DNA of 64,000 bases from an uncultured Gammaproteobacteria bacterium (lineage in GTDB: Bacteria > Patescibacteriota > Microgenomatia > UBA10105), in contig CAYPMW010000001.1 of NCBI GenBank assembly GCA_964412165.1, positions 16,316-80,315 of the forward strand, read 5' to 3'. The position numbers were made by a program, and so were the translations under genes. This document shows, piece by piece, positions 28,678 to 61,786 of the stretch; position 1 is the first letter of the stretch; every line of letters begins with the position of its first letter. The notes beneath the pieces were generated by a model, which saw nothing but the letters and a program-made list of their open reading frames with translations, did no database searches and was not told where the DNA came from.

Positions 28678-28732
28678 AGGGTAGTATAACGATTTTTATT
28701 AACTCGTCCCTTATTTCCGGGACGGGTTTTTT
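28678..28732 (+). promoter_or_regulatory. glyQS leader: T-box-like motif plus a terminator/SD-proximal hairpin with a U6 run
   Basis: AGGGTAGTATAACG at 28678-91, then the hairpin CGTCCC(28705-10)/GGGACG(28719-24) and TTTTTT at 28727-32, ending 8 nt before the ATG. The AGGG/CCCT and ACG/CGT alternative pairing mirrors the ileS leader, but the 7-nt bulge TAGTATA does not match tRNA-Gly NCCA. Confidence 0.3.
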
Positions 28733-28739
28733 AGTGAGT

Positions 28740-30143
28740 ATGAATCAATTGGACAAGATAATCAGTTTATGTAAGCGCCGGGGATTTGTCTTTCCCACGA
28801 GCGAAATCTATGGTGGAATGTCAAGCTCGTATGATTACGGTCCATTGGGGGTAGAAATGCTTCGTAGTCTCCGTGATCTTTTTTGGGCAGAATTCGTACA
28901 CAGTCGTGATGATATGGTTGGTCTCGATACGCAAATTCTTCTTCATCCGACTACCTGGATTGCTTCTGGTCATGTGAGTTCTTTCACTGATCCCTTGGTA
29001 GAAGATAAAGTATCTCACAAAAGATACCGTGCAGACCATTTGATTGAAGCATATATTACCGGGCATCCAAATCTCAAAACTGGATCTCACGATCCTAAAA
29101 CTATGACTTTGGATGAGATGGCAAAGTTTATAAAAACATATCTAATAAAAAGTCCTGAAGGGAATGAGATATCCGAGCCAAAGAGATTTAATCTTTTGTT
29201 TGAAACCAAATTGGGTGCGGTAGAAAATACTCAGTCTACACTCTACCTCCGGGGTGAAACTGCGCAGGGAATATTTTCAAATTTTAAAAACGTACTTGAT
29301 TCAACGAGACTAGAACTGCCATTTGGGATTGCCCAAATCGGTAAAGCATTTCGAAACGAAATCACCACAGGACAATTTATATTCCGCACTATTGAACTTG
29401 AACAGGCCGAGATAGAATATTTTTTTAATGCTGACGAAGTGGAATGGCAGAAATTATATGAGTATTGGCGGGAGACGATATGGAATTTCCTGATACATAA
29501 AGTTGGACTCAAGTCAACCCGCCTGCGCTGGAGGAGACATACTGATATAGAAAGAAGCCATTACAGTAAGGAAACATATGATCTCGATTTTGATTATCCG
29601 TTTGGATGGAAGGAACTGTGTGGCTTGGCGTACCGCACAAATTACGACTTGAGTCAACATATGAAATATTCAGGAGCGTCTTTAGAATACGTAGACAAAG
29701 AGACCGGTAGTAAAATCATTCCCCATGTAATTGAACCATCAATAGGACTAAACCGTTTACTATTGTCACTTTTGGTAAATGGTTACTTCGAAGATGGGGA
29801 TCGCGTAGTGCTTAAATTGCACCCTCAAATAGCTCCAATAACAGCGGCAGTTTTTCCATTAGTGGCAAATAAACCTGATTTAGTGCGTAAGGCGCGTGAT
29901 ATATTCAATCGTATGAGGCAGGCAGGGATAAAGACAACCTGGGACGATAGAGGAAATATTGGTAAACGATATTTTTCCCAAGATGAAATCGGAACACCTT
30001 GGTGCATCACTGTGGATTATGATACACTTTCTTTTGATAGCGTCACAGTTCGTGATAGAGATACTAAAAAGCAAGAGCGCGTCGAAATATCTTTGCTACC
30101 TAAATATATAATAAACCGTATGATCCAGAAAGGAGTATTATAA
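28740..30143 (+). CDS. glyQS: Glycine--tRNA ligase, alpha2 (GlyQS) type
   Basis: FPTSEIYGGMSSSYDYGPLGVEMLRSLRDLFW and the class II aaRS core. The start is set at the ATG MNQLD; the track ORF begins further upstream within the leader. Confidence 0.85.
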   Translation: MNQLDKIISLCKRRGFVFPTSEIYGGMSSSYDYGPLGVEMLRSLRDLFWAEFVHSRDDMVGLDTQILLHPTTWIASGHVSSFTDPLVEDKVSHKRYRADHLIEAYITGHPNLKTGSHDPKTMTLDEMAKFIKTYLIKSPEGNEISEPKRFNLLFETKLGAVENTQSTLYLRGETAQGIFSNFKNVLDSTRLELPFGIAQIGKAFRNEITTGQFIFRTIELEQAEIEYFFNADEVEWQKLYEYWRETIWNFLIHKVGLKSTRLRWRRHTDIERSHYSKETYDLDFDYPFGWKELCGLAYRTNYDLSQHMKYSGASLEYVDKETGSKIIPHVIEPSIGLNRLLLSLLVNGYFEDGDRVVLKLHPQIAPITAAVFPLVANKPDLVRKARDIFNRMRQAGIKTTWDDRGNIGKRYFSQDEIGTPWCITVDYDTLSFDSVTVRDRDTKKQERVEISLLPKYIINRMIQKGVL

Positions 30144-30181
30144 AAAACAAAACTGCGATTATAATCACTGCAATAGTACTG

Positions 30182-30601
30182 TTGATAATAATTGGAGGAG
30201 GATACACTGTCATTAAATTTTTCGCATCAAACTCAAAGGTTCAACCGTTGCCCATTGAAACCACTTCACCAAACGTGTACGAACTTGATCCCTCCGTCAC
30301 CGTAGAGCTTACACCGAGGGCTGACAAAAAAGCTGTGAATTTAAGTATCACTAATATACCTCAGGATACCTCACAAATAGAATATGAATTGAGTTATTTG
30401 ACGGGTAACGAATTACCAAAAGGTGCAGTAGGAACTATACGAGTTGATAGTCAGTCGACAATAGAACGAGAAATACTTCTGGGAACATGTTCTAAAAATA
30501 CCTGTACCTATGATGAAGGGGTGAAAAGTGTTACTCTCGTTTTACGCTTCAGTGGTTTACAGGGAATAGCTCAATTTATAAGAGAGTATTCGCTTGATTA
30601 G
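30182..30601 (+). CDS. Hypothetical small membrane-anchored protein
   Basis: The frame is open back to 30146 and encodes a hydrophobic helix (AIIITAIVLLIIIGGG) before a polar domain. The start codon is uncertain: TTG at 30182, or a non-canonical start upstream. Confidence 0.35.
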   Translation: MIIIGGGYTVIKFFASNSKVQPLPIETTSPNVYELDPSVTVELTPRADKKAVNLSITNIPQDTSQIEYELSYLTGNELPKGAVGTIRVDSQSTIEREILLGTCSKNTCTYDEGVKSVTLVLRFSGLQGIAQFIREYSLD

Positions 30602-30743
30602 GTCTCAGTCTCAAGTCTTAGAGGACCAAATAATTCTTGGGAATTTTCTCCAGCCTAATTATAACGTACTTTTTTTTACTCTACATATAGTGTTTCTTCA
30701 GTGGTGAAAACCCCTTGACTTTATTCACGTAAAAAAGGCAAAA

Positions 30744-30771
30744 TGGTGTAAGGTGGTGTAAAATGGTGAAA
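30744..30771 (+). repeat. Three phased direct repeats TGGTG(T/A)AA with 10-bp spacing; candidate MraZ operator
   Basis: TGGTGTAA at 30744-51, TGGTGTAA at 30754-61 and TGGTGAAA at 30764-71. The last repeat overlaps the mraZ ATG at 30763. Confidence 0.45.
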
Positions 30772-31197
30772 GTCTCTAAATTGGGTTTGTTTCTCGGGGA
30801 ATATCGGCATACACTCACGGATAAAAACAGAGTTGCACTGCCAAAACGTATCAGAGTAGAAATTGAAGGATTTGAGGTGATTCTCGCTCAGGGGTATGAC
30901 CAGTGTATTGTGGGATATACAAAAAATACCTGGGAAGATATGGCAATGCAGCCATTAGCCATACCAAGTTATGAAGAACAGGGAAGAGTACTCCGCAGGC
31001 GTTTGTTTTCTACAGCAGTAGTAGTTGAACTTGATACGCAAGGCAGAGCGGTACTACCTGAACGACTGCTTAAATGGGCAACGCTTGAGGGTCAGATTGG
31101 GGAGGAAGTAGTGATAATTGGGGCTGGAGATCATTTCGAGATTTGGCAAATGGATCTATGGGAAAAATATCTTGATCGGATGCAGAATCAGGGGTAA
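30763..31197 (+). CDS. mraZ: Division/cell wall cluster transcriptional regulator MraZ
   Basis: Contains the FLGEYRHTLTDKNRVALPKRIR motif (DxKxR-type) and the second half-repeat; about 144 aa. First gene of the dcw cluster. Confidence 0.8.
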   Translation: MVKVSKLGLFLGEYRHTLTDKNRVALPKRIRVEIEGFEVILAQGYDQCIVGYTKNTWEDMAMQPLAIPSYEEQGRVLRRRLFSTAVVVELDTQGRAVLPERLLKWATLEGQIGEEVVIIGAGDHFEIWQMDLWEKYLDRMQNQG

Positions 31198-31364
31198 CGA
31201 TTGAGGAGATTTGTAAACCTATCGGGTAAGTAGCCTACCCCGGTTTACCTAAACTTAGGAGGTGATTTTTTTGAGTTTTCTACTGAATGGCAATAAAATG
31301 CGTCGCAGATTAGCGCAAATTCTTGCTCAGGCAGCCGAAAGCGAAGCAAATCAGGAAAAGAATA

Positions 31365-32288
31365 ATGAGATTAAACAAGAACAACCAGATACACATACCA
31401 GTTCTGTTGACTGAAGTACTGGGGTATCTACAAGTTGTTCCGGACAATTGGTATATTGATGCGACGGCCGGTTTCGGCGGACATACAGAGAAAATAATAG
31501 ATCAAGGGGGAAGAGTTCTCGCTATTGAATGGGATAAAGATGCAGTTGCATTCTTAGAAGGAAAATTTACAGGTGAAATCAAATCAAGACGGTTAATCAT
31601 AGCGAAAGGAAATTTTATACACGTAAGAAGATTTTCACTGAAATTTGGACTACCAAAGATAAAGGGAATTCTTTTTGATCTGGGAATGTCGACTTTTCAA
31701 ATAAAGAACTCTATGAAAGGATTTTCTTTTTTAAAGCATGAAAAACTGGATATGCGGATGACGGAGGATATTCAGACTGATGCATATACGATTATTAATT
31801 CAAGTAGTTTGGATGAGCTGACCTTTATCTTCATGAAATATGGGGAAGAACGGTTTGCACTTGAAATAGCTCGTGATATCGTCCGTATTCGTAAAGTAAA
31901 ACCAATTAGATACGCTGATGAATTAGCTGAAATAGTAGAGAAAATATATAAATCAAAACATCTACGTATAGAGCAACACGCTGCCACTCAGATTTTTCAA
32001 GCTTTACGTATGTATACAAACCACGAATTAGACAACTTGAAGTTAGCACTGCCTGACTCATATTCACTACTTGATATAGGTGGACGTCTGGTCGTTATCA
32101 GTTTTCATTCGCTCGAAGACCGGATGGTAAAACAACATTTTCAGCGATTCCAAAAAGAACATGGTGCTCTCGAGCTTACTCATAAGCCGATCCGGGCTCG
32201 GAAAGAAGAAATTCAGAGGAACCCATCTGCCCGAAGCGCTAAATTAAGAGTTGTAGGAAAAAATCATTCATATGAAGTCAAATCATAG
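31365..32288 (+). CDS. rsmH: 16S rRNA (cytosine1402-N4)-methyltransferase RsmH
   Basis: HIPVLLTEVLGYL...YIDATAGFGGHTEKII. The start is taken at the internal ATG (MRLNK). Confidence 0.85.
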   Translation: MRLNKNNQIHIPVLLTEVLGYLQVVPDNWYIDATAGFGGHTEKIIDQGGRVLAIEWDKDAVAFLEGKFTGEIKSRRLIIAKGNFIHVRRFSLKFGLPKIKGILFDLGMSTFQIKNSMKGFSFLKHEKLDMRMTEDIQTDAYTIINSSSLDELTFIFMKYGEERFALEIARDIVRIRKVKPIRYADELAEIVEKIYKSKHLRIEQHAATQIFQALRMYTNHELDNLKLALPDSYSLLDIGGRLVVISFHSLEDRMVKQHFQRFQKEHGALELTHKPIRARKEEIQRNPSARSAKLRVVGKNHSYEVKS

Positions 32289-32604
32289 AAAGCTTTCAGA
32301 TATGAGTAGTAAAGCAATTTTTACAGTACTGCCTGTTGTATGTGCTGGATTAATAATTATTCTTTTAGTTATTCAGGTTGTAGTGTCAAACAGGCTTGCG
32401 GCAATGGGATCTCATTTAGTAGAGATCGAGTCTGACATTAATAATTTGAACAATGAAAAAAATCGATTGAGTGAAAAAATTGCTTCATCTTCGTCCCATT
32501 TGACACTGTTACAAAAAGCTCGTGAGATAGGTTTTACTCAGCCGATAAATCCAATGTTTTATACCTCTCAGCAGTCTGTGGCTTTTGATGGTAGTGATAA
32601 TTAA
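32272..32604 (+). CDS. ftsL: Cell division protein FtsL-like
   Basis: 110 aa with a single TM helix and a coiled-coil (NNLNNEKNRLSEKIASS). It sits in the canonical position between rsmH and ftsI. Confidence 0.5.
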   Translation: MKSNHRKLSDMSSKAIFTVLPVVCAGLIIILLVIQVVVSNRLAAMGSHLVEIESDINNLNNEKNRLSEKIASSSSHLTLLQKAREIGFTQPINPMFYTSQQSVAFDGSDN

Positions 32605-32612
32605 ACTCAAGT

Positions 32613-34289
32613 ATGTGGCGGCAACGGCTTATTCTCAGCTTGTTTGTATTTGTATTTATTGCAGTGGCAGTTCGGTTATTTTATTTCCAGATACTAGTAG
32701 GAGAAACTCTTGCACAGGCGGCTTCAAACCAATATTACTTTACTCTTGATTTACTCCCTCAGCGAGGAAAAATAATAACGAGCGACAAGAATCCTTTGGT
32801 TATGAACCAGCCTGCGTATTTAACATATGCTGAAGTAAAAAAAATTGCAAATATTTCAGAATTTACCGATAAAATTTCAACAATTCTTGAGCTGGATAAA
32901 AATGACTTGATAGGTAGACTCAATCAGGAAAAAATTGTTTGGGTATCACTCAAGCACAAAGTAGAAGAAGAAAAACGCCAACAACTAGAGAATTTACAAC
33001 TCACAGGTCTTGGTTTTGAAAAGGAAGGCAAGCGGTATTATCCTGAAGCTTCAATGGCAGCTCAGTTATTGGGTTTTTTAGGGAGTGATGATTACGGTAA
33101 TGATAAAGGATATTTTGGGGTTGAAGGTTACTACAATCGGGCACTCGCTGGAAAATCCGGTTCACTTATCCAAGAGAAGGATGCTCGGGGGTATCCGATG
33201 CTATTAGGGGAAACGCAGCGTATTAATGCAGAAGATGGTCAGGATTTGGTTCTTTATCTTGATCGGACTGTTCAAACGATCATCGAAACTAAATTGGAGG
33301 AGGGAATAAATAAATATGGAGCTAAAGAAGGTTTAATTGGCGTGATGGACCCTACTACGGGTGGAATTCTGGGTATGGCAGCTTGGCCAAAATATGATCC
33401 TCGTGAATATTCAAAATCTGATCAAAACTTGTTTGTAAATCCGTTAGTGGCTGATTCCTACGAACCGGGTTCTATATTTAAGATCATTGTGATGGCATCA
33501 GCCATAAATGAGAAAAAAGTCACTCAAAAAACGGAATTTAACGAGGACGGTCCGATTCAAATTGGAGAGTATCAAATAAAAACGTGGAATGATGTGTACA
33601 AAGGTAAAATCACGACTGCAAAAATCATCGAAACTTCATCAAATCCGGGAATGGTACAAGTCGGAAGACTTTTGGGCAAAGAAAATTTATATAAATATTT
33701 AAAAAAATTTGGTTTCAACGACAAAACCGGTGTTGACTTGGAAGATGAAACTGCCACACCCTTGCGACCATTTGTGGAGTGGGCGGACATAGATTTTGCT
33801 ACAGTAACTTTTGGACAAGGAATAGCCGTAACTCCGACTCAAATGCTTCAAGCTGTATCGGCAATTGCCAATGGTGGTAAATTAATCCGTCCCAGAGTAG
33901 TCAGAGAGATTGTAGACGCAACGGGTAAAGTTTTAGAACACAGGCCGGAGGTGATACGAGAAGTAATCAAGCCGACTGCAGCAAAAATAATCACTGATAT
34001 TATGATTCAGGCGGTAGATAATGGTGAAGTACGTTATTTCAAACCTAAAGGATATAGAATCGCAGGGAAGACTGGCACCGCTCAAGTTCCAATTAAGGGG
34101 CATTACGATCCAGATAAGACAATTGCCTCTTATATTGGTTTTGCTCCGGCTGACAAACCAAAATTTGTTATCATCGTGAGACTCACAGAACCTACACGCA
34201 GTCCATGGGGTTCAACAACCGCTGCTCCAGTGTTTTTCTCGGTAGCTCAAGAGCTGTTTACCTACTATGGAATCCCCCCAACAAATTAG
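32613..34289 (+). CDS. ftsI: Penicillin-binding protein, class B transpeptidase (FtsI/PBP2-like)
   Basis: N-terminal TM helix, the SxxK motif (SIFK) and the KTGT motif (AGKTGTAQ). Confidence 0.8.
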   Translation: MWRQRLILSLFVFVFIAVAVRLFYFQILVGETLAQAASNQYYFTLDLLPQRGKIITSDKNPLVMNQPAYLTYAEVKKIANISEFTDKISTILELDKNDLIGRLNQEKIVWVSLKHKVEEEKRQQLENLQLTGLGFEKEGKRYYPEASMAAQLLGFLGSDDYGNDKGYFGVEGYYNRALAGKSGSLIQEKDARGYPMLLGETQRINAEDGQDLVLYLDRTVQTIIETKLEEGINKYGAKEGLIGVMDPTTGGILGMAAWPKYDPREYSKSDQNLFVNPLVADSYEPGSIFKIIVMASAINEKKVTQKTEFNEDGPIQIGEYQIKTWNDVYKGKITTAKIIETSSNPGMVQVGRLLGKENLYKYLKKFGFNDKTGVDLEDETATPLRPFVEWADIDFATVTFGQGIAVTPTQMLQAVSAIANGGKLIRPRVVREIVDATGKVLEHRPEVIREVIKPTAAKIITDIMIQAVDNGEVRYFKPKGYRIAGKTGTAQVPIKGHYDPDKTIASYIGFAPADKPKFVIIVRLTEPTRSPWGSTTAAPVFFSVAQELFTYYGIPPTN

Positions 34290-34394
34290 TGGATACATTT
34301 TGTTACAATATACAACTATACGGTAATCCGTAATCAAAGGTAATTAAAATTAATTTAGTGGGATAGTCGATTTCACCTGTAAGTTTACATTAAG

Positions 34395-35132
34395 ATGCTT
34401 AGACAAAACCATAATTGCACTGATTACTTTTCAGTATATTCCAGGTGTAACAATTTTCATTGTTTTATTACAGAGCGTGGTAAAGGGAGTTTTCTTGATA
34501 CAACTGAAGCTCTTTCAAGATTTGATGAAATAAAATCCGAATTGGGTATAAACGATGGATCTTTGTATCTTATGAACCAAGTACACTCAAATAAAATACA
34601 GGTGGTAACCTCGAAGTCTCAAAATAACCCTTACGTTGATGCGCTAGTAACTGCTGAAAAAAATATTTACCTCGGAGTGAGAGTGGCAGATTGCGTCCCT
34701 GTATTTTTTTATGACTCTAAAAAAGAAGTGGCGGGAGTGGCTCATGCAGGATGGAAGGGAACACTTGGTAATATAACCAAAAGGGTCATCGATACGTTTA
34801 TTGCGTTTGGCTCGAGTACCGATGACATATATATAGCTATAGGTCCACATATTGGCCCATGTTGTTATAATGTACCTCTGGAAAGAGCTAATTTATTTTC
34901 CGAAACTTTTAGTGATAGTTTAGTCGTATCCACACGTAGCGGTAAGACTTATCTGGATATAGGTCGAGTAAATTACATACAACTAGTGCACATGGGAATT
35001 AAAAAAAACCATATCGACATCCCACCTACCTGCACATCATGTCAAATCGACCGATTTTTTTCCTTTCGTAAAGACTCAAAACCAACATTTGGTGAAATGT
35101 TAGGCGTTATTGGGATGGAGTCTATAGAATGA
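34395..35132 (+). CDS. pgeF: YfiH/PgeF-family (DUF152, laccase-domain) purine nucleoside phosphorylase / peptidoglycan editing factor
   Basis: VRVADCVPVFFYD...VAHAGWKGT...GPHIGPCCYNV, the family motifs including Cys/His ligands. Confidence 0.75.
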   Translation: MLRQNHNCTDYFSVYSRCNNFHCFITERGKGSFLDTTEALSRFDEIKSELGINDGSLYLMNQVHSNKIQVVTSKSQNNPYVDALVTAEKNIYLGVRVADCVPVFFYDSKKEVAGVAHAGWKGTLGNITKRVIDTFIAFGSSTDDIYIAIGPHIGPCCYNVPLERANLFSETFSDSLVVSTRSGKTYLDIGRVNYIQLVHMGIKKNHIDIPPTCTSCQIDRFFSFRKDSKPTFGEMLGVIGMESIE

Positions 35133-36541: not shown

Positions 36542-36543
36542 AT

Positions 36544-37536: not shown

Positions 37537-37542
37537 AATCAT

Positions 37543-40160: not shown

Positions 40161-40172
40161 CACCTGATACAT

Positions 40173-42373: not shown

Positions 42374-42376
42374 TAT

Positions 42377-44266: not shown

Positions 44267-44281
44267 TTAATAAGATGAATT

Positions 44282-45349: not shown

Positions 45350-45721
45350 ATGGAAACTATCAGACAGCATCATATTTCCTTAAAAAATGCATTTTCAGGG
45401 ATTTGGTGGGCACTGAGGACCCAGCCGAACTTTAAGATACATCTCACACTTTCTATACTCGCGGTTTTTTTGGGAGTAATATTTAAACTAACACTCCCTG
45501 AATGGGTGATACTCATCTTTACTATTTTTTGGGGACTGGCGACTGAAATGCTTAACACCAGCATTGAGGCGATAACGGATTTAGTTACTCAGGAATGGAG
45601 ACAGGAAGCTAAGATCGCTAAAGACGTATCAGCCGGGATGATGCTCGTAGTGGCACTTGGCGCGCTGTGTATAGGGTTTATATTATTTGTGCCGAAAATA
45701 TGGCATTTGATTATTACCTAA
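45350..45721 (+). CDS. dgkA: Diacylglycerol/undecaprenol kinase (DgkA family)
   Basis: 123 aa with 3 TM helices and the ATEMLNTSIEAITDLV motif. Confidence 0.7.
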   Translation: METIRQHHISLKNAFSGIWWALRTQPNFKIHLTLSILAVFLGVIFKLTLPEWVILIFTIFWGLATEMLNTSIEAITDLVTQEWRQEAKIAKDVSAGMMLVVALGALCIGFILFVPKIWHLIIT

Positions 45722-45725
45722 ACGC

Positions 45726-46766: not shown

Positions 46767-46770
46767 ATCT

Positions 46771-51110: not shown

Positions 51111-51131
51111 GTATAAAATGAGTTTGTATAT

Positions 51132-52424: not shown

Positions 52425-52514
52425 AATTAAACCTGCTTGTCTTGGTTGAAGATAACAGTAATTAATGTTAGTATACTGCCTACTATAGTTTGTTCGTTTC
52501 ATTGAAAAACTTTT

Positions 52515-53696: not shown

Positions 53697-54206
53697 ATGG
53701 ATGCAACTTCCCTTCAATTATCCTATAATATATCAATGAGTGGTAAAAGTGAACTAATCATTCCGTCAGCTGAGCTTCCGCGAGAATTATTAGATAACGA
53801 AGCGTTTAGACTTATTGATGAGTTTAGAAAAACATTTCGCGCAACTCCTGAGTTTCTCAAAGCTTTGGGAGAACATTATTTTGGTGAGCTTGATGATGGA
53901 CAACTGATTAAACCTGATAACCAAAGAAGCATTTCTTTCTGGTATAAAGGAGTACCATGGGAGGTTGAAGATAGATATACTGAGGATGGGCAGCGGTTAA
54001 GTGTAACCGTCACTAGTCCTGTCAATTTCCCATTTCAGACAATTTTGATTAGCTTGGTTGCGAAAAGAAAGATAGATCAAAAAAATCAAATTGAACCCAA
54101 AGTTCAGGCGATTGGGATAAATGAATCTTTACAACCGGTTATATACAGAAATTCGCAACAAGCAGTTGATGTTATATTAAGGATCTTAAATTTTTACAAA
54201 ATGTAG
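53697..54206 (+). CDS. Hypothetical protein, translationally coupled to ftsZ
   Basis: Its ATG lies immediately after the ftsZ TAA (53694-96). It is a 169-aa soluble protein with no family I can recognise. Confidence 0.4.
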   Translation: MDATSLQLSYNISMSGKSELIIPSAELPRELLDNEAFRLIDEFRKTFRATPEFLKALGEHYFGELDDGQLIKPDNQRSISFWYKGVPWEVEDRYTEDGQRLSVTVTSPVNFPFQTILISLVAKRKIDQKNQIEPKVQAIGINESLQPVIYRNSQQAVDVILRILNFYKM

Positions 54207-54282
54207 ATTCTGTTATATACTTAATGTAATTAAAAAGCGTTTGACTGGTAATCACCAGGGAATGTGTTTATACATCGCTGAA

Positions 54283-54579
54283 AGAAGAACATAGAGATCC
54301 TGTAATAAAATTCTAGTTAAATCTTGGAATTAAGGTTCAGGATGCGTATATAAGTAGACCTTTCCGGGTAAGCCCGTAATAGCAGGAAGTAAGGGTTGTA
54401 GGTAATAAGTTGTAGGTTGTAGGAAGAAATAAGTTTCTTACAACCCACAACCTACAACTGAAGTAAGGTGGTACCACGAATTAGTTAAGAGTTTAGAATT
54501 AAGTGTTAAGAATTCTAAGTTCTCAAACTATCGTCCTTAGATTCGACTACAATTGTGGTTGGAGATAAGGACCCTTTTT
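54283..54579 (+). promoter_or_regulatory. ileS leader with a T-box-like riboswitch signature (translational, SD-sequestering type)
   Basis: Leader of about 300 nt. Long imperfect hairpin at 54409-54458 (Stem III-like). T-box-like AAGGTGGTACCACG at 54465-78. Sequester hairpin GTCCTTA(54533-39)/TAAGGAC(54566-72) contains the SD AAGGA, followed by TTTTT at 54575-79 and the ATG at 54580. Alternative pairing AAGG(54465-68)/CCTT(54535-38) and ACG(54476-78)/CGT(54532-34) flanks the bulge UGGUACC. Confidence 0.5.
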
Positions 54580-57420
54580 ATGGTAAAAAAACACACATTT
54601 CAACCGGTTTCAGCGAAAGTAAACTTCCCCGAACTTGAAGAACGGATTCTTAAGTTTTGGAAAGAAAATCAGATTTTTGAAAAATCAATTGCAGCGCGAC
54701 CTGCATCAAAAACCTGGACGTTTTTAGACGGACCACCGTTTATTACCGGGCTTCCCCATTACGGGAGCCTTCTATCGAGCATTCCCAAAGATCTCTTCCC
54801 CCGTTACTGGACAATGAAGGGATATCGCGTGCGGCGAGTGTGGGGGTGGGATTGCCATGGACTTCCTGCGGAGAATAAGGTTGAGGATAAGTTGGGAATC
54901 ACGCGGAAAAAAGACATTGAAGAAAAAGTAGGCATCAAGAAATTTATTGAAGAATGCAAACTTTATGTGAGTGACGTTTCAGGAGAGTGGAAATGGTATG
55001 TGGACCATATCGGAAGGTGGGTTGATTTTGCACACGCCTACAAAACTATGGACATGCCGTACATGGAAACGGTGATGTGGGTATTTAAATCGCTCTATGA
55101 TAAAGGATACATTTACAAAGGCTTACGTGTATCACTTTACTGCCCCCATTGCGCCACTCCAATTTCAAATTTTGAAGTGGCAATGGATGCTGATAATTAT
55201 CGGTCAGTGACTGATCCGGGAACAATTTATAAATATCCTCTGCAAGATGTAAAAGATACGTACATATTAGCTTGGTCAACCACGCCGTGGAACAAACTCG
55301 TGACCCCGGCATTAGCGGTAAATCCCAAATTGATATACGTTAAAGTAGCACAGGCAGATGAATATTATATTCTGGCAAAATCTAGGGTAAAAATGCTAAA
55401 TAAGGAGCCTTTTAAAGTGGTAGATGAATTTCTTGGTCAAGAATTGGTAGGCAAAGCTTTCCAGCCACACTACGATTTCTATAAAGTAGATCCTGGTAAG
55501 AAAGCATTTATTATAGTGAACGGCGAGTTTGTGACCGCCGAGGAAGGTACGGGAGTCGTCACGATCGCCGCATACGGTGAGGAAGATTTGGCTGTCATGC
55601 AAAGGGAAAGCATCCAGATTGTCATGCATCTTGACGATGAAGGTATCCTCAAGCCGTTTGTGCCCAAATGGGGTGGAATGTATTATCTCAAAGCAAATAT
55701 TGAGATTAATAAAGATCTTGCGGCCCGTGGACTTATATATGATGATAAACCGTACTCTCATACCGTACCAACCTGCTGGAGATGTCATACACGACTTATA
55801 TTCGCTCCCCAGGATGCTTGGTATGTGAATGTACAATCGCTCAAAAAGAGGATGAAGGAGACTAATGAGGCAGTCAATTGGTTCCCCAAACACTTTAAGT
55901 ATGGTAGATACCTCAAAAGCCTTGAGTTTGCACCTGACTGGTGCATATCAAGGAGTAGATATTGGGGGTCGCCGGTGCCTGTGTGGGAGTGTGAGTGTGG
56001 CGAGAGATTCGTACCGGGTTCGATATCAGAACTAGAGATCCTATCAGGGAAGCATATTGCAGATCTACACAAACCGGCAATTGATCAGGTGACCATAAAG
56101 TGTCCAAAATGTAATCAACAGGCAAAACGCGTTCCTGAAGTGCTTGATAGTTGGATTGAGGCTGGATCTGCGCCTTTTGCTGAGCGTCATTTTCCATTTG
56201 AAAAAGACCTGAGACTCACAGACTTTTTTCCACCTGACTTTATTGTTGAATATACTGGGCAGATCAGAGCCTGGTTTTACGTGTTACACGTACTAGCCAC
56301 TGCGCTTTTTGAATCACACGCGTTTAAAAATGTGGTAGTTACTGGTGTTATTTTAGGAACTGATGGGCGAAAAATGAGCAAAAACTATGGTAATTACCCC
56401 GATCCCAAAGAATTGCTTCAGAAATATGGCGGCGATGCTCTACGCCTGTACCTCATGGGAAGTCCGGTGATGCATGGAGAAGACATTATCATTTCAGAAA
56501 ATGAATACCGCAATCAGGTCAAAGGAATGCTACTCATACTCTGGAACGTATATAACTTTTTTGTAACTAACGCTTTGGTTGATGGGTGGTCTGCGAAAAA
56601 TACTCCCCCCAAACCCGTACATGTTTTGGATAAATGGATCCTCTCCCGTCTTTATGAGCATATAGAGACCATGGCTGAAAAAGGGTATGAAAAGTATGAT
56701 AGCGTGTTTGTCGTACAGTCGGCAGAAAAATTTATACGCGAGTTATCATTATGGTACGTGCGGCGAAGTCGAAATCGCTTCGGGCCAGGTAGTCCGAATT
56801 CCATAGATAAAGAAAGAGCGTACCACACGCTGTGGTTTGTTTTAAAAGAATATGTTAAATCCATATCCCCGTTAATACCATTTGTTACTGAATCAATGTA
56901 TCGCAATCTTACTGGCGAGATTTCGGTTCACCTAGCGGACTGGCCCACACTTCCTTCTGAGTGGCGCAGTGTCATCCTTGAGAAGGATATGACAAATGCG
57001 ATAAAACTGGCATCCCGTGTTCATGCTTTCCGTAAACAGACGGGCGTGATAGTCCGAATTCCTATTAAAACGCTTGAATACACCGGACCAGACGAGATAA
57101 GTGGCCACGTTCGAGAGATACTTCTGGAAGAAATAAATGTGTATGATCTTGTTTACAAAGGCACGTCGAGTGACTATACTGTTTCTGGTAAAACGGATGA
57201 AATAAATCTTGATATTCAAGCAGGGTATGTGCGAAAAATTATCCGGCAAGTACAGAATCTCAGAAAAGAAAAAAAGTTAAACTTGAGCCAGCCGATCAAG
57301 CTCCAATTAGACGCACGCGATAAAGGGAAAATAACCAGCAATTTACTCGAAAAAATTAAGCAAAAAACACTCGCATCTGAAATCGTATGGGGAGACGGTC
57401 TTTCTATTTCGACTGGATAA
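54580..57420 (+). CDS. ileS: Isoleucine--tRNA ligase
   Basis: MVKKHTFQPVSAKVNFPELEERILKFW, the HIGH-region PHYGS, the KMSKS-type GRKMSKNYGN, an editing domain, and a total of about 946 aa. The start is at the internal ATG with the SD AAGGA 9 nt upstream. Confidence 0.9.
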   Translation: MVKKHTFQPVSAKVNFPELEERILKFWKENQIFEKSIAARPASKTWTFLDGPPFITGLPHYGSLLSSIPKDLFPRYWTMKGYRVRRVWGWDCHGLPAENKVEDKLGITRKKDIEEKVGIKKFIEECKLYVSDVSGEWKWYVDHIGRWVDFAHAYKTMDMPYMETVMWVFKSLYDKGYIYKGLRVSLYCPHCATPISNFEVAMDADNYRSVTDPGTIYKYPLQDVKDTYILAWSTTPWNKLVTPALAVNPKLIYVKVAQADEYYILAKSRVKMLNKEPFKVVDEFLGQELVGKAFQPHYDFYKVDPGKKAFIIVNGEFVTAEEGTGVVTIAAYGEEDLAVMQRESIQIVMHLDDEGILKPFVPKWGGMYYLKANIEINKDLAARGLIYDDKPYSHTVPTCWRCHTRLIFAPQDAWYVNVQSLKKRMKETNEAVNWFPKHFKYGRYLKSLEFAPDWCISRSRYWGSPVPVWECECGERFVPGSISELEILSGKHIADLHKPAIDQVTIKCPKCNQQAKRVPEVLDSWIEAGSAPFAERHFPFEKDLRLTDFFPPDFIVEYTGQIRAWFYVLHVLATALFESHAFKNVVVTGVILGTDGRKMSKNYGNYPDPKELLQKYGGDALRLYLMGSPVMHGEDIIISENEYRNQVKGMLLILWNVYNFFVTNALVDGWSAKNTPPKPVHVLDKWILSRLYEHIETMAEKGYEKYDSVFVVQSAEKFIRELSLWYVRRSRNRFGPGSPNSIDKERAYHTLWFVLKEYVKSISPLIPFVTESMYRNLTGEISVHLADWPTLPSEWRSVILEKDMTNAIKLASRVHAFRKQTGVIVRIPIKTLEYTGPDEISGHVREILLEEINVYDLVYKGTSSDYTVSGKTDEINLDIQAGYVRKIIRQVQNLRKEKKLNLSQPIKLQLDARDKGKITSNLLEKIKQKTLASEIVWGDGLSISTG

Positions 57421-58454
57421 TTTTTTTTCCGGTTGTACTTTTAAGTAGTATTAGTCTGGTTACTCTTCTATCAATAGGGCACAATTTTTTTTATTCTCAA
57501 TTATTATTTGTATTTTTAGGACTGGTATTATTTTATCTCCTGTCTCGGTTTGATTTCTCAATATTTCAATATTTGGTTTATTTCCTCTATATCGCCTGCA
57601 TTCTATTTCTCCTTTTATCATTTTTGGGGCCAAATGTCCGAGGATCATCTCGTTGGCTGGAAATTGGTGATTTTCGTTTGCAACCTTCTGAATTTATTAA
57701 GCCCTTTCTCTGTCTCAGTTTTGCCGGATTTATTATGCGTCATCCACCTCTTAAAATAAAAACAATTCTTATCCATACCATAATCATGCTGGTGCCGAGT
57801 TTACTTGTTTTTCTTCAGCCCGATTTAGGTAATTCACTCATTTTTGCCAGTATTTGGCTCTCTCTCATGATATTTGGAGGAATTTCACTTCGATATATCG
57901 CGGCCGTATTCCTAGGAGGGATAAGTATTATACCTCTCTCATTTTCGTTTCTTCGCGAGTATCAGCGTTTAAGAATACTAGCGTTTCTTAATCCTTGGTT
58001 TGATCCACAAGGTGCCGGATACAATGCGATACAATCGATGATTACAGTGGGTTCTGGGCAGCTTTTTGGCCGCGGATTTGGTAAAGGCACCCAATCTTTT
58101 TTGAAATTTTTACCTGAACACCACACCGATTTTATTTTTGCAGCCTTGACTGAATTATTTGGGTTTATGGGAAGCACGGTCGTATTAGTTTTGTATTTTG
58201 TATTTTTATGGAGGCTACTTAGTCATATCCGAAACCATGCGCATAATAAAATGGTTGTCTTATATATATCAGGTCTGTTTATACAGCTATTCGTCCAGAT
58301 TGTGATTAATATTGGTATGAACATGGGGATTGTACCGATCACGGGGATTACGCTACCGTTCCTTTCGTATGGCGGAAGTTCACTCCTCACTTCATGGATA
58401 AGTTTAGGAATTTTGATGTCTGCTATTCAAAAACCGCGCGTAGTGGAAAATTAG
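57387..58454 (+). CDS. Second SEDS-family protein (RodA/FtsW-like)
   Basis: LQPSEFIKP, QPDLGNS and SYGGSSLL motifs, with 10 helices. It overlaps the ileS end by 34 nt. Confidence 0.7.
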   Translation: MGRRSFYFDWIIFFPVVLLSSISLVTLLSIGHNFFYSQLLFVFLGLVLFYLLSRFDFSIFQYLVYFLYIACILFLLLSFLGPNVRGSSRWLEIGDFRLQPSEFIKPFLCLSFAGFIMRHPPLKIKTILIHTIIMLVPSLLVFLQPDLGNSLIFASIWLSLMIFGGISLRYIAAVFLGGISIIPLSFSFLREYQRLRILAFLNPWFDPQGAGYNAIQSMITVGSGQLFGRGFGKGTQSFLKFLPEHHTDFIFAALTELFGFMGSTVVLVLYFVFLWRLLSHIRNHAHNKMVVLYISGLFIQLFVQIVINIGMNMGIVPITGITLPFLSYGGSSLLTSWISLGILMSAIQKPRVVEN

Positions 58455-58467
58455 CTTTTCCATTCCA

Positions 58468-58496
58468 TTGCAAAAAAACAATAATTTTGTTAAGAT
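58468..58496 (+). promoter_or_regulatory. Sigma70-like promoter upstream of rplU (TTGCAA-N17-TAAGAT)
   Basis: TTGCAA at 58468-73 and TAAGAT at 58491-96. Confidence 0.4.
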
Positions 58497-58517
58497 ACGC
58501 TCAGTCAGCCGACATTT

Positions 58518-58545
58518 GACCTGGATACCGCCAGGTCTTTGTTTT
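58518..58545 (+). terminator. Hairpin plus U-run in the rplU leader; intrinsic-terminator-like, and/or the terminator of the upstream SEDS gene
   Basis: GACCTGG(58518-24)-ATACCG-CCAGGTC(58531-37) followed by TTTGTTTT at 58538-45, 5 nt before the rplU ATG. Confidence 0.45.
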
Positions 58546-58550
58546 AAAGT

Positions 58551-58913
58551 ATGTTTGCTATTGTTAAAATCGGTGCTCACCAGTACCGAGTTTCACCAGG
58601 AGACTCGATCCGTGTCGACCATATCGAAGGCAAAGTTGGGGATATCACCTATCTTCCAGCTTTACTTGTGGTAGAAGGAGGTAATGTTCGTGTAGGAAAA
58701 GAGGTTAGAGCGGTGAAAATACCAGCAATCATCAAAAGTCATGGAAAAGGTGAAAAAATTGATACGTATCGGTTTAAAGCAAAATCAAGATACCGTAAGC
58801 ACCGCGGCTTTCGCACCTTTGCAACTACACTGGAAATTAAACAGTGGGAAGAGAGTGAATTACCCCAAAAACCCCTCGCAAAACGGAGAATCTCCGTAAA
58901 AAGAAAAAAATGA
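58551..58913 (+). CDS. rplU: 50S ribosomal protein L21
   Basis: MFAIVKIGAHQYRVSPGDSIRVDHIEG, the classic bL21 N-terminus. Confidence 0.9.
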   Translation: MFAIVKIGAHQYRVSPGDSIRVDHIEGKVGDITYLPALLVVEGGNVRVGKEVRAVKIPAIIKSHGKGEKIDTYRFKAKSRYRKHRGFRTFATTLEIKQWEESELPQKPLAKRRISVKRKK

Positions 58914-60091
58914 CCGAGTACCTTTTTATTTTAGGGTACGCATATGAATTATGCGAAGCGGAGCTGCGTCATTTTTTAAATTTAAACTATCCCGGGTCGA
59001 TCATAACTCCACTTCATAAACCAGTGTGCATGATAAAAACTACCCAAACTATAGACCCCACGCAAGTGATCGGCATCCTTGGGGGAGTGGTTAAAATTGC
59101 CAAAGTTCGTGATGTCATACCAGCTCCAACGTCAAGTCACTTACGGCGTTTCTTTGATGACTATGATGCACGTACACTTATATTCGGAATTAGTTCTTAC
59201 GGAAGCCCAGAGAAAAACTCAAGGACAATCCTACCGGAATTGAAAGCCATTTTACAGAAAAAGATAACCCACGTGCGGTTTATCGAACCGAAGGTAGGGA
59301 GTAGTTTATCGAGTGTAGTAGTAAAAAAACAACACGTGAAGGAAATTATTTTGGTTGAAACCCATTTAGGTTGGTATGTAGGAGAAACCCTTACAGTACA
59401 GGATCCAGACGAGTGGAGTAGCCGCGATACCAAGCGTCCTCATATCTCTCCAAAATCAGGGATGTTGCCTCTTAAAGTTGCGCGGATGATGGTCAACTTA
59501 GCACTTTCTCAGGGGGATAAAACCGGTTGTTTACTTGATCCATTTTGTGGTATGGGGACTATCCTAGGAGAAGCATTAGTGTCAGGATGGAGTGTAGTTG
59601 GCAGTGACCTCTCCCGCGACGCAGTACAAAAAACCCGTGAAAATCTTCTTTGGCTATCCCAACGTAATCCGTCATTAAAAAGAAAGTTTCAGGTATTTGT
59701 ATCAGACGCCACCCACATTTCCAAAAGTATCATTAAACCTCAAATAGATGCTATTGTGTCCGAGCCATTTCTTGGAGCTTTATTTGAGAAAAAAGGTGAG
59801 CTACTTTACCAGAAAGGGCTAAAAGTCACAGAAACTAGTATTCGAGATATGTTTAAAGGGCTTGAGAAACTCTATCTTGGTGCATTCAAAGACTGGCGAA
59901 ATATTCTCAGACCGAATGCCAGGATCGTGATTGCATTGCCACAACTTTCCTATGATAACCAACTGTATATCGTGAAAAATCTCATTGACAAGTGTGAAAA
60001 AGTGGGATATACTTTCACACAAAATACTCTTAAATATTGCAGGCCCCACGCAATTGTAAAACGAAGTATTCATATATTTACTTTCAAATAA
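58910..60091 (+). CDS. THUMP-domain class I SAM-dependent RNA methyltransferase (UPF0020, RlmL/Trm14-like)
   Basis: N-terminus LFILGYAYELCEAELRHF (THUMP-type start), motif I LDPFCGMGTILGEA, and the motif IV-like VSEPFLG. There is an ATGA overlap with rplU. Confidence 0.5.
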   Translation: MTEYLFILGYAYELCEAELRHFLNLNYPGSIITPLHKPVCMIKTTQTIDPTQVIGILGGVVKIAKVRDVIPAPTSSHLRRFFDDYDARTLIFGISSYGSPEKNSRTILPELKAILQKKITHVRFIEPKVGSSLSSVVVKKQHVKEIILVETHLGWYVGETLTVQDPDEWSSRDTKRPHISPKSGMLPLKVARMMVNLALSQGDKTGCLLDPFCGMGTILGEALVSGWSVVGSDLSRDAVQKTRENLLWLSQRNPSLKRKFQVFVSDATHISKSIIKPQIDAIVSEPFLGALFEKKGELLYQKGLKVTETSIRDMFKGLEKLYLGAFKDWRNILRPNARIVIALPQLSYDNQLYIVKNLIDKCEKVGYTFTQNTLKYCRPHAIVKRSIHIFTFK

Positions 60092-60095
60092 CACT

Positions 60096-60344
60096 ATGGC
60101 ACATATAAAAACCGGTGGAACAACCAAAGGCAACAGAGATTCCCGGTCAAAACGGCTTGGGGTGAAAATTTATGGTGGTCAACGTGCCATAGTGGGGAGT
60201 ATCATAGTGAGACAAAAAGGTACCAAAGTTCACCCCGGTCAGGGGACATCCATGGGTAAAGATTTTTCGATATTTGCTAAAGTTGATGGACTGGTACGAT
60301 TTAAAACAAACGCAGGAAAAAAATACGTCTTAGTAAAGGTATAA
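60096..60344 (+). CDS. rpmA: 50S ribosomal protein L27 (no N-terminal propeptide)
   Basis: MAHIKTGGTTKGNRDSRSKRLGVKIYGGQ...VRQKGTKVHPG. Confidence 0.9.
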   Translation: MAHIKTGGTTKGNRDSRSKRLGVKIYGGQRAIVGSIIVRQKGTKVHPGQGTSMGKDFSIFAKVDGLVRFKTNAGKKYVLVKV

Positions 60345-61178
60345 ATGGCTGATCCTAATCAAATCATTGAACTTGAGATAGATTTGTTACAACCAAATCC
60401 GTTGCAACCTCGCAGTATTATCACTGCAGAATCATTAAAAGATTTATCGAGTTCCATCAAAGAAAGCGGGATACTTGAACCATTAGTGGTAGCCAAAACT
60501 CCAGCTGGATATCAAATTATTGCCGGTGAGCGCAGATGGCGGGCGGCTAAACTAGCTGGGTTGGCCCACGTGCCGGTCCTCATCAAAGAAACGACTGCCA
60601 GGGAAATGCTGGAAATGGCGATTGTGGAAAATGTCCAGCGGGAGGATCTCAATCCGATTGAAAGAGCTCAAGCGTTTGAACGGTTGATTGAGGAATTTGG
60701 GTTACCTGTTTCAGAAATTGCCAAACGGATTGGTAAAAGCGATTCTTATGTTTCAAATACAATTCGACTTCTGACGCTTCCGGATGCCATCAAAGATGGT
60801 CTCATGTCTGGGTCAATCACAGAAGGTCATGCTCGGGCAATTGCCGGGTTAGGTGATGTCAAGCTGATGGTGGACGCATATAAAGCAATACTATCTGAAA
60901 GTGCCTCGGTGAGGAAAACCGAGGACCTCGTCAGACGCCTCAAATCCGAGACACAACAAAAACCACATTCACGAATTGAACGCATACATAATGAAGAGCT
61001 TGACCGTATAGCTCAAAACTTGGCGCAGGAAGTAGAGGGTTTAGTGAAAATCACTCAATCCAAAGTTGAAGCGCGGATTGTTTATGTGATCAGGGGAAAT
61101 TTAGAAAAAACCTCCCAAATTATTAAAGAAATCCACCGCCGGATGACTCAAAGGCCAATAATTCAAAACCCAGCGTAA
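60345..61178 (+). CDS. parB: ParB/Spo0J-family partition (or Noc-like) protein; no adjacent parA
   Basis: LLQPNPLQPR (box I) and IAGERRWRAAKLAG (the GERRxRA box II), plus an HTH region. Confidence 0.8.
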   Translation: MADPNQIIELEIDLLQPNPLQPRSIITAESLKDLSSSIKESGILEPLVVAKTPAGYQIIAGERRWRAAKLAGLAHVPVLIKETTAREMLEMAIVENVQREDLNPIERAQAFERLIEEFGLPVSEIAKRIGKSDSYVSNTIRLLTLPDAIKDGLMSGSITEGHARAIAGLGDVKLMVDAYKAILSESASVRKTEDLVRRLKSETQQKPHSRIERIHNEELDRIAQNLAQEVEGLVKITQSKVEARIVYVIRGNLEKTSQIIKEIHRRMTQRPIIQNPA

Positions 61179-61738
61179 GTGATTCTTGATACCGTCCCAA
61201 ATTTACTAAATGGCCAATAGACGAGTTGAGATCTACCAATAATTGCGTCTTTGTGAATGGTTCCCCATTCCCGAGAATCAGAACTGCGTGATCTGTTGTC
61301 GCCGACGACAAATATGTGGTCTTCAGGTACGACAATGTCTTTACCTTCTTTTAAGTAAGCTCCTTGGTGGGTAGTGACATTTATTCCGATATAAGGTTCT
61401 TCCAAGACTTTCCCATTGATATAAAAGTGGTTGTTCTCAAGTTTTATCTCATCCCCGGGAAGGCCGATGATCCGCTTAATAAAATCAATATCCGGGTTTT
61501 GAGGAGACTTAAAGACGACTACGTCTCCCCGTTTCGGATCGCTAAATTTATATTCGAACTTATTGGTGAGTATATATTCTCCGTCTGTAAAGTTTGGTTC
61601 CATTGAAGCGCCTTTCACTTGGTGTGGTTGGTAGAGGAATAAGTACACCACGACAAATATAGCCAGTGCCACGACGATTGACTCCATGATGTCAAATAAA
61701 AAGCCAAAAATATGCTTTATGATGACCAAAAAAAACAT
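61163..61738 (-). CDS. lepB: Signal peptidase I
   Basis: An N-terminal TM helix, the GASMEPNF (Ser box) and VVGDNRSRSSDSREWG (GDNR box) motifs. Confidence 0.8.
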   Translation of the reverse strand: MFFLVIIKHIFGFLFDIMESIVVALAIFVVVYLFLYQPHQVKGASMEPNFTDGEYILTNKFEYKFSDPKRGDVVVFKSPQNPDIDFIKRIIGLPGDEIKLENNHFYINGKVLEEPYIGINVTTHQGAYLKEGKDIVVPEDHIFVVGDNRSRSSDSREWGTIHKDAIIGRSQLVYWPFSKFGTVSRITYAGF

Positions 61739-61741
61739 ATA

Positions 61742-61770
61742 AAAAGGCCTTCCTGAAGTTGAAGGCTCCC
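61742..61770 (-). promoter_or_regulatory. lepB leader hairpin whose 3' arm carries the SD, followed by a U-run abutting the start codon
   Basis: On the minus-strand RNA: GCCUUC-AACUUCAG-GAAGGC, then CUUUUUAU, then AUG. The SD GGAAGG is 9 nt from the AUG and lies in the stem. Confidence 0.4.
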
Positions 61771-61786
61771 ATTACCCAAACCTGGG

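Follow-up and report, generated by a model that had tools for sequence, protein, structure and literature searches.

The stretch of DNA analysed here, 64,000 nucleotides (nt) of contig CAYPMW010000001.1 (herein referred to as the window), carries four genes, glyQS, ileS, rplU and lepB, whose start codons each lie 8–14 nt downstream of a hairpin with a run of U. An earlier reading of this DNA made from its letters alone (the sequence-only reading) had described these structures and proposed a common attenuation or translational-gating strategy for housekeeping genes; sequence inspection and folding place all four hairpins where that reading had put them. Pfam confirms GlyRS, RodA, L21, a methyltransferase, L27, ParB and LepB in the window. 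Judging from protein identity, the window belongs to an isolated lineage of Patescibacteria (Microgenomates), because no relative exceeds 65–66% amino acid identity: the best relatives of IleRS are Gottesmanbacteria and Levybacteria metagenome-assembled genomes at ≤66% (185,579 species genomes), and those of GlyRS reach ≤63% in JGI metagenomes and ≤65% among 5.8 billion proteins, its own sequence aside. Identical GlyRS copies occur only in three assemblies, all of one organism and with no difference in their leaders, and the IleRS and GlyRS searches yielded no close relative at >66% identity with which covariation on the four hairpins could be followed. Rfam at gathering threshold, applied to the window and 11 related loci, returned tRNA only, with weak T-box matches at E≤10. 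The four genes and the promoter-like sites upstream of them are:

28740..30143, plus strand: glyQS, alpha2-type glycyl-tRNA synthetase of 467 amino acids, starting where its homologues start
54580..57420, plus strand: ileS
58551..58913, plus strand: rplU (L21), first gene of rplU–methyltransferase–rpmA
61163..61738, minus strand: lepB (signal peptidase I), identified by Pfam
28572..28599, plus strand: glyQS promoter TTGACA-16-TATAAT (12/12), predicted transcription start site (TSS) ~28606; like the promoter of the syntenic metagenomic locus L168 in position and sequence
54193..54221, plus strand: ileS promoter TTTACA-17-TATACT (10/12)
58468..58496, plus strand: rplU promoter TTGCAA-17-TAAGAT, predicted TSS ~58503; counterpart of the relatives' conserved cATTGCAAt-17-TAnAAT
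61795..61823, minus strand: lepB promoter TTGCAT-17-TATACT, predicted TSS ~61788; counterpart of TTGACG-17-TAGACT in the nearest relatives

The hairpins themselves, with energies from local-segment folding for the first three and from folding of the whole leader for lepB, are:

28701..28732, plus strand: glyQS terminator AACUCGUCCC / GGGACGGGUU, a 10-bp stem with a loop of 8 (28701–28728) and U6 at 28727–28732, with ATG 28740 seven nt downstream; −17.0 kcal/mol, z −3.9, 1/200 shuffles equal
54533..54579, plus strand: ileS terminator/sequestrator GUCCUUA...UAAGGAC, 7+9 bp (54533–54572; arms 54533–54539 and 54566–54572, plus an inner 9-bp extension), then CC and U5 at 54575–54579 adjoining ATG 54580; −21.9 kcal/mol, z −4.95, 0/200 shuffles equal
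54567–54571, plus strand: Shine-Dalgarno (SD)-like AAGGA within the 3′ arm of the ileS helix
58518..58545, plus strand: rplU leader hairpin GACCUGG-AUACCG-CCAGGUC (58518–58537, 7 bp) followed by the tail UUUGUUUU, terminator-like and specific to this genome, before ATG 58551; −14.7 kcal/mol, z −3.5, 0/200 shuffles equal
61741..61770, minus strand: lepB terminator-like hairpin GCCUUC-AACUUCAG-GAAGGC, extended by GGG/CUU (61770–61744, core 61766–61747), with U5 at 61745–61741 and GGAAGG 9 nt before ATG 61738; 55-nt leader −16.4 kcal/mol, z only −1.5, 15/200 shuffles equal

Hairpin placement and Shine-Dalgarno sequences

A consensus scan of the whole window found no more terminator-like sites overall than in shuffles. 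Only six sites on both strands have at least four G-C pairs, and the top three of the scan by pairs and G-C pairs are the glyQS, rplU and lepB hairpins, each 9–14 nt from a start codon, where we estimate a chance expectation of ~0.04 (6/128,000 × 15 nt × 57 genes); the placement of the hairpins before start codons is far from random. These three have the G+C-rich stem-loop with a U-tract directly after it that defines an intrinsic terminator, whereas the ileS structure, which the scan did not pick up because of its inner extension, conforms only loosely, having CC(C) between stem and U5. A promoter-like site stands upstream of every one of the four, and the sequence-only reading was right in regarding them as embedded in leaders and not merely as 3′ ends of preceding genes. 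Across ~1.5 Mb of related loci, the histogram of terminator-to-start distances peaks at −3 to +6 nt (30/191); on inspection this peak consisted mostly of TTG pseudo-starts created by the T-run itself and of hairpins inside genes, and its genuine cases are ileS T-boxes and a few other ileS leaders.

The sequence-only reading had also located the only plausible SD of each gene in the 3′ arm of its stem, a claim that the window at large does not bear out. GGAG, GAGG or AGGA occurs at −20 to −5 in 6/56 window genes, equal to the 8.9% background, genes inside operons likewise lack an SD, and the SD-like core has a suitable spacing at ileS (8 nt) and lepB (9 nt) alone, lying 15–17 nt away at glyQS and rplU. 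In the T-box leaders described below (ileS and glyQS), the SD-like purines are a by-product of pairing, because the terminator 3′ arm must be complementary to a conserved CCCU/CCUU strand and is consequently rich in AAGG/AGGG. Occlusion of the initiation region by the helix of the OFF state would be plausible even without an SD, because that helix ends 8–12 nt from the AUG. Leaderless-type starts are the default in these Patescibacteria, with a TAnAAT box that ends 6–9 nt before the ATG and in many cases is preceded, at 17 nt, by TTGAAG or TTGACA (rplU in 52/66 relatives, plus many ileS and glyQS loci); in the window such starts are found at 45350, 6431 and 3074.

We consider it likely that the four hairpins are two different things, namely the switch helices of T-box leaders at ileS and glyQS and genome-specific, terminator-like insertions at rplU and lepB. 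The idea that they are one device, in which the hairpin would both mask the SD and end transcription as a general means of attenuating or gating housekeeping genes, draws on the geometry common to all four (promoter, hairpin, U-run and start codon within 14 nt), on the non-random placement and on AAGGA and GGAAGG at ileS and lepB, whose 8–9 nt from the ATG is the spacing of the few clear SDs in the window. We nevertheless regard it as very unlikely: two of the leaders are T-boxes with sensor domains of their own and the other two have neither sensor nor alternative fold, SD sequences are not enriched and the supposed SD is too distant at glyQS and rplU, the design does not recur among the window's ~50 other genes, and no relative examined has the rplU or the lepB hairpin. 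What survives of the proposed common strategy is that ileS and glyQS belong to the T-box device; rplU and lepB show no switch, family match or conservation, and a general housekeeping strategy is contradicted by the remaining genes. For readers of sequence this is a caution that hairpins which look alike in front of start codons may work by different mechanisms.

The ileS leader

By its motifs and alternative folds, the ileS hairpin is the terminator/sequestrator of a compact, intact T-box riboswitch with an ultrashort Stem I. Upstream of the hairpin the leader contains:

54245..54258, plus strand: ultrashort Stem I CUGG-UAAUCA-CCAG, with specifier AUC (54251–54253) plus A in the terminal loop
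54353..54383, plus strand: conserved sequence motif of the Stem IIA/B (pseudoknot) region, a region that non-glycyl T-boxes have: AGUAGACCUUUCCGGGUAAGCCCGUAAUAGC, from a pattern derived from nine relatives with one match in the window (expected 0)
54395..54458, plus strand: long Stem III, directly 5′ of the T-box sequence in the minimum free energy (MFE) fold
54464..54539, plus strand: T-box discriminator/antiterminator, 9/9 pairs, MFE fold with the 3′ arm withheld
54464–54468 / 54535–54539, plus strand: antiterminator A1, UAAGG/CCUUA
54469–54475, plus strand: antiterminator bulge UGGUACC
54476–54479 / 54531–54534, plus strand: antiterminator A2, ACGA/UCGU, with a 51-nt hairpin insertion atop it

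A motif search found the T-box sequence AAGGUGGUACCACGA / AAGGTGGTACCNYG (UAAGG-UGGUACC-ACGA, 54464–54479) once in the window (expected 0). The variable base of its UGGU is U, complementary to the discriminator base of tRNA-Ile, which is A73. The strand UCGUCCUUA (54531–54539) can pair either with the T-box sequence (9/9) or, in part, with UAAGGAC at 54566–54572. Folding without the 3′ arm yields the antiterminator as the MFE structure and leaves the final 17 nt ahead of the AUG unpaired; once that arm is included, the terminator fold is the more stable by 8.8 kcal/mol. Because the 5′ arm of the terminator is the 3′ strand of the antiterminator, the two structures are mutually exclusive, at ileS as at glyQS.

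The same leader occurs in 9/80 related ileS loci, and across 169 loci the Stem IIA/B pattern is confined to these nine T-box leaders, besides its one match in the window. In at least seven of the ileS relatives AUC+A occupies a terminal loop closed by 4 bp whose sequence covaries from locus to locus (CUGG/CCAG, CCGG/CCGG, GAAG/CUUC, GGGA/UCCU), and in one further locus (L029) AUC+A can be seen by eye on a 3-bp Stem I; A2 covaries as well (ACGA/UCGU, ACGG/CCGU, AUGG/CCAU, GCGA/UCGC). A covariance model for this class was dropped when MAFFT misaligned the variable 5′ half, and motif patterns were used instead. The OFF helices of the relatives have energies of −14 to −22 kcal/mol. Counting the window, the U-run ends 0–2 nt from the ATG in nine of the ten ileS T-box loci, and in six of the ten a G+C-rich stem is followed directly by U6–U8. 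The motifs, the alternative folds and their conservation and covariation in relatives are observed features of this leader.

By analogy with the T-box family, the leader would bind tRNA and act at two levels. In the ON state, uncharged tRNA-Ile would pair with AUC in the loop of the ultrashort Stem I and with UGGU in the 7-nt bulge and so hold the antiterminator, RNA polymerase would pass the U-run, and the 17 nt before the AUG would stay single-stranded. When the tRNA is charged, the OFF helix would form and transcription would stop in the U-run adjoining the AUG, and any read-through RNA would have its initiation region buried. In the modelled OFF folds of both ileS and glyQS the 8–20 nt before the start codon are also buried, making gating of transcription and translation together plausible.

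Several points weigh against an intact T-box with a terminator at ileS. The Rfam T-box model RF00230 gives this leader only 14.9 bits against a gathering score of 93, and misses the relatives too; we attribute the low score to the absence of the long Stem I that the model expects, that is, to a detection threshold and not to a functional feature. The helix is separated from U5 by CC(C), and A2 and Stem III carry insertions, features of the latter kind being associated with translational T-boxes (PMC7583486); by analogy, termination at ileS may be weak. The only tRNA gene of the organism in the window is tRNA-Val, so that the tRNA pairing partners lie outside it.

The same features bear on the possibility that the T-box helices of these candidate phyla radiation (CPR) bacteria act only at translation, as sequestrators, the U-run being the A/U-rich initiation region of SD-independent mRNAs. 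The ultrashort Stem I together with the A2 and Stem III insertions is tied to translational T-boxes (PMC7583486), and CC(C) precedes U5 in the window; against this stand the classic intrinsic-terminator anatomy of 6/10 ileS loci, with U6–U8 directly after a G+C-rich stem, and the U6 placed directly at the stem of glyQS. We judge control of translation alone to be unlikely, and prefer a helix that would both terminate and sequester.

The closest published counterparts are the ileS T-boxes of Actinobacteria (Mycobacterium, Nocardia; "class II", translational), which share with the window a very short Stem I whose terminal loop displays AUC-A, the absence of elbow-binding distal motifs, a region with the Stem IIA/B sequence motif, the UGGU bulge, A2 insertions, a long Stem III and an OFF helix over an SD-like AAGGA (PMC7583486). 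Unlike them, the window and, more so, its nine Microgenomates relatives have a terminator-like OFF helix with U5–U8 and a U-run fused to the start codon (0–2 nt), and the host is a Patescibacterium. In Actinobacteria these T-boxes control translation alone; as a rule a long Stem I is required for transcriptional T-boxes, and Stem II for truncated ones (PMC7583486). Outside Firmicutes, T-boxes are known on ileS and glyS genes of Actinobacteria, Chloroflexi and Deinococcus (PMC2494555), and TBDB ran its short-Stem-I model in Actinobacteria only (PMC7778990); in the literature searched we found no paper linking a T-box to CPR or Patescibacteria. There is also a likeness, at the level of the predicted folds, to dual-acting riboswitch platforms, in that one helix precedes a U-run and occludes the initiation region and the ON fold would free both. 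The reviewed dual-acting riboswitches combine control of the ribosome-binding site (RBS) with Rho-dependent termination or mRNA decay; here, by contrast, the putative sensor is a T-box, the U-run abuts the AUG and the host shows no SD enrichment. Catalogues of metabolite riboswitches include single terminator hairpins that overlap the RBS.

Two further kinds of leader were seen among the related ileS loci. In L008, a terminator of the same type (CCGCUCGUCCUUU ... AAGGAGAGCGG, UUUUAUAAUG) lies ~75 nt upstream of the ileS start, in a leader that has no UGGUACC bulge and no match to the IIA/B pattern and that may be a further T-box, itself diverged. Where Microgenomates ileS loci have no T-box, part of the leader is reverse-complementary to ileS codons ~8–13 (L010, L021, L023, L035, L042, L057, L076 and, more weakly, L059; ~−45 to +45), as in L021 with CCCGUUAGAGAU against AUCUCUAACGGG. 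In seven of these eight loci the MFE fold of −70..+30 contains an 11–17-bp long-range helix that encloses the start codon and covaries (L057, CCCCGUUACGGAU / AUCUGUAACGGGG; L010, CCCCGUACCUUG / CAAGGUGCGGGG; L023, CCGUACCAUUUU / AAAAUGGUGCGG). Its modelled folds suggest a second kind of device on ileS leaders, one independent of the T-box.

The glyQS leader

The glyQS leader keeps the architecture of a T-box while departing from it at the positions that contact tRNA. Its parts are:

28606..28714, plus strand: T-box-derived glyQS leader in its antiterminator fold (match to model R1; MFE fold with the 3′ arm withheld)
28616–28631, plus strand: Stem I hairpin, loop AAAGCA (28621–28626), with AGC at the codon position (28623–28625)
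28651–28673, plus strand: Stem III
28677–28681 / 28708–28712, plus strand: A1, AAGGG/CCCUU
28682–28688, plus strand: 7-nt bulge UAGUAUA
28689–28692 / 28704–28707, plus strand: A2, ACGA/UCGU

The terminator shares its 5′ arm AACUCGUCCC with an antiterminator of T-box geometry, in which it forms the 3′ strand. We built a covariance model (R1) from 22 independent metagenomic glyQS T-boxes, in which 17 of the 19 pairs show compensatory changes, and ran it against the whole window with filters off. It gave a single significant match, the best in the window, at 28606–28714 (23.1 bits, E=4e-4), which is full length (model positions 1–111 of 111) and starts at the predicted TSS; the score is just under the lowest listed family match, matches within the family at E≤0.01 scoring 26–91 bits. 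Seventeen of the 19 modelled pairs are retained, including a C-G to U-A double change, and the terminator arms are near-identical to those of the related locus L085. L168, which shares the gene order recO-glyRS-x-mraZ and a similar promoter with the window, has a canonical copy, with Stem I CUCA-AGGGCA-UGAG and AGGGUGGAAUCGCGG. By its orthologous position and its kept helices, the glyQS leader is a descendant of the T-box family.

The unpaired positions tell a different story, 11 of the ~25 conserved ones being changed:

K-turn 5′ side: UGA in the family, U-A in the window
K-turn 3′ side: GGAGC in the family, GGUAC in the window
specifier: GGC in the family, AGC in the window (28623–28625)
bulge: UGGAACC in the family, UAGUAUA in the window (28682–28688)

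The loop AAAGCA, against the family consensus UGGCA, contains no Gly specifier (GGC/GGN), and UAGUAUA lacks the 5′-UGGN-3′ of a T-box bulge, the UGG of which is invariant in all 29 other glyQS T-boxes tabulated. An assembly error can be dismissed as the source of these motifs, the leader being identical in three independent assemblies. A stronger antiterminator that would offset the defects was likewise rejected: the terminator fold is preferred by 11.0 kcal/mol, a gap at least as large as in canonical relatives (9.4 in L168, 6.0 in L085). These motifs suggest a T-box-derived attenuator and not a bona fide sensor of tRNA-Gly; the leader probably no longer reads tRNA-Gly canonically and would be a leaky or otherwise relieved attenuator.

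Two points count against this interpretation. RF00230 gives the leader 12.9 bits against the gathering score of 93, and a T-box unable to bind tRNA would leave unexplained how an essential gene is expressed past a 10-bp terminator. An alternative is that the leader is still a working tRNA sensor, using non-canonical contacts with tRNA-Gly or re-targeted to another tRNA or ligand (its loop has AGC-A and its bulge UAGU). The leader has kept all its helices, the 7-nt length of the bulge, a purine following the codon position and a perfect terminator, a pattern that looks like selection on a switch rather than neutral decay, and the promoter is a perfect consensus, as expected for a gene controlled by an attenuator. 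Such a sensor nevertheless seems improbable to us, since UGG, the partner of the universal CCA end, does not vary among the 29 others, UAG gives an A-C mismatch with any tRNA, the G-A motif of the K-turn is lost, and a Ser-type specifier before GlyRS makes no regulatory sense. As a T-box remnant that has lost its tRNA contacts, the degenerate copy is a natural experiment.

Public gene calls give GlyRS 505 amino acids, from ATG 28626 within the Stem I loop (28626–30143, protein P0001). The 38 codons of open frame that this call runs through the riboswitch are probably an artefact of annotation, and could also bear on how the terminator is overcome.

The family to which this leader belongs forms a large class, found in 35/73 metagenomic GlyRS loci (L082–L168; examples are L123:1287-1436, L126:1294-1441 and L168:848-990), with an ultrashort Stem I of 4–5 bp, GGC plus a purine in its terminal loop, a K-turn and no Stem II, most members having classic terminators with U-runs. 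Like the Bacillus subtilis and Geobacillus glyQS T-box (RF00230), the leader in the window precedes a glyRS gene, lacks Stem II, has Stem III and opposes an antiterminator with a 7-nt bulge to a competing terminator. It differs in its ultrashort Stem I (as in the 35 metagenomic leaders), where the known T-box has a long one with T-loop motifs, and in having AGC for GGC, UAGUAUA for UGGAACC and no K-turn.

Taken together, the ileS and glyQS T-boxes extend a known family and do not amount to a new principle. They depart from the published picture in combining an ultrashort Stem I with terminator-like helices, in a glyQS class without Stem II and in a U-run fused to the AUG. T-box control of ileS and glyQS would thereby reach the candidate phyla radiation, bacteria with few known regulators. 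The Rfam T-box model overlooks these leaders, and gene callers extend GlyRS through the riboswitch (505 versus 467 amino acids). For the T-box field they offer natural test cases of a short Stem I with transcriptional control and of combined transcriptional and translational control.

The rplU and lepB hairpins

At rplU and lepB the hairpin lies 15–20 nt past the gene's own predicted TSS and 9–14 nt before its start codon. The lepB leader has one further predicted element:

61774..61787, minus strand: 5′-terminal hairpin ACCCA-GGUU-UGGGU of the lepB leader, from folding

Relatives are arranged otherwise. A −10-like box ends 4–11 nt (mode 7–8) before the rplU ATG in 52/66 relatives, making them leaderless or nearly so, and a hairpin with a T-rich tail precedes the rplU ATG in 0/66. 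In the eight nearest relatives lepB has TTGACG-17-TAGACT, 6–9 nt and then the ATG (leaderless), and the hairpin is absent. The window keeps both promoters, with ~50 nt including the hairpin inserted between −10 box and ATG. No alternative pairing or T-box signal was found in either leader, and at E≤10 Rfam gave no match to the rplU leader (58455–58560), RF00559 included, and no meaningful match to the lepB leader. Repeats or mobile-element copies were considered and rejected, as the two hairpins are not repeated and bear no likeness to other hairpins; leaderless promoters overlapping them were rejected too, inspection finding no acceptable −10 box 5–10 nt before either ATG.

Each of the two hairpins is the first terminator-like site after the co-directional upstream gene. 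Most likely, though the argument is a weak one, they are constitutive promoter-proximal terminators that serve as insulators and dampers: they would cap read-through from ileS–rodA and from the 685-amino-acid gene, respectively, and damp their own promoter. The anatomy is that of ordinary intrinsic (Rho-independent) terminators or constitutive attenuators, with a G+C-rich 6–7-bp stem, a 6–8-nt loop and a U-rich tail, unlike which these hairpins stand downstream of their own TSS and before a start codon, not at a 3′ end. Weighing against this interpretation, neither hairpin shows a positive sign of function, the lepB leader folds no better than shuffles (z −1.5), and with the nearest genomes at ~65% amino acid identity the conservation of the hairpins is judged at that distance.

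A related explanation makes them operon-end terminators of the upstream genes that happen to lie just past the next promoter, their effect on rplU and lepB being collateral. No other structure resembling a terminator comes between either hairpin and the stop codon of the co-directional gene upstream (58454 for ileS–rodA; 61943 for the 685-amino-acid gene at 61943–64000, minus strand), they have no alternative pairing, and they are lineage-specific, as insulators often are. We think this possible but doubtful: a comparison of scan tables with the list of open reading frames shows other operon ends (after 14539, 30601, 34289, 45301, 52424 and 54206) to lack a terminator, relatives have none between rodA and rplU, and placing the terminator ahead of the promoter would give insulation at no cost to the downstream gene. 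In two relatives (L022 and L033) a terminator hairpin with T8 runs directly into an extended −10 box (TTTTTTTTGATACAAT), after which comes the ATG of a leaderless rplU; there the terminator overlaps the next promoter, an order that differs from the window's promoter-then-terminator.

Regulation by a bound protein or small RNA is a further alternative, which for rplU would mean ribosomal protein autoregulation resembling that of the Firmicute L21 leader. An autoregulatory leader is present on Firmicute rplU-X-rpmA operons (Rfam RF00559), and a few relatives (L076, L005, L011) also have structured rplU leaders. The window shares with RF00559 and other ribosomal protein leaders a structured leader before an rplU-X-rpmA operon; it shows no sequence or structure match, however, consisting of a single 7-bp hairpin that is not conserved in 66 relatives. 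With no Rfam match for either leader, for rplU even at E≤10, and no likeness to other hairpins or repetition, we consider regulated elements decidedly unlikely and retain constitutive terminators as the preferred explanation.

A more speculative view, to which we give little credence, joins all four leaders. Its first part is a distinct, compact Patescibacterial T-box class with an ultrashort Stem I (and, for glyQS, no Stem II), a genuine intrinsic terminator and a U-tract fused to the start, in which one helix would gate both levels; if true, such a class would break the rule by which a long, elbow-binding Stem I is required for T-boxes that act on transcription. Its second is re-use of the glyQS scaffold, which, having lost every tRNA-contact motif and kept the switch helices, may respond to another effector or to ribosome-coupled read-through from AUG 28626. 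Its third is that leaderless rplU and lepB were made leadered by inserted promoter-proximal terminators, which could be a genome-specific move towards attenuation.

The surroundings of lepB have features of their own. Its promoter (minus strand, 61823–61795) overlaps a back-to-back promoter-like site of tRNA-Val(CAC) (plus strand, 61788–61815, with a TG-extended −10). The order ileS ... lepB(−) / tRNA(+) recurs in several relatives, a tRNA gene lying ~7 kb past the ileS start in 7/11 loci scanned, and tRNA-antisense sequence is present upstream of lepB in many of the relative loci.

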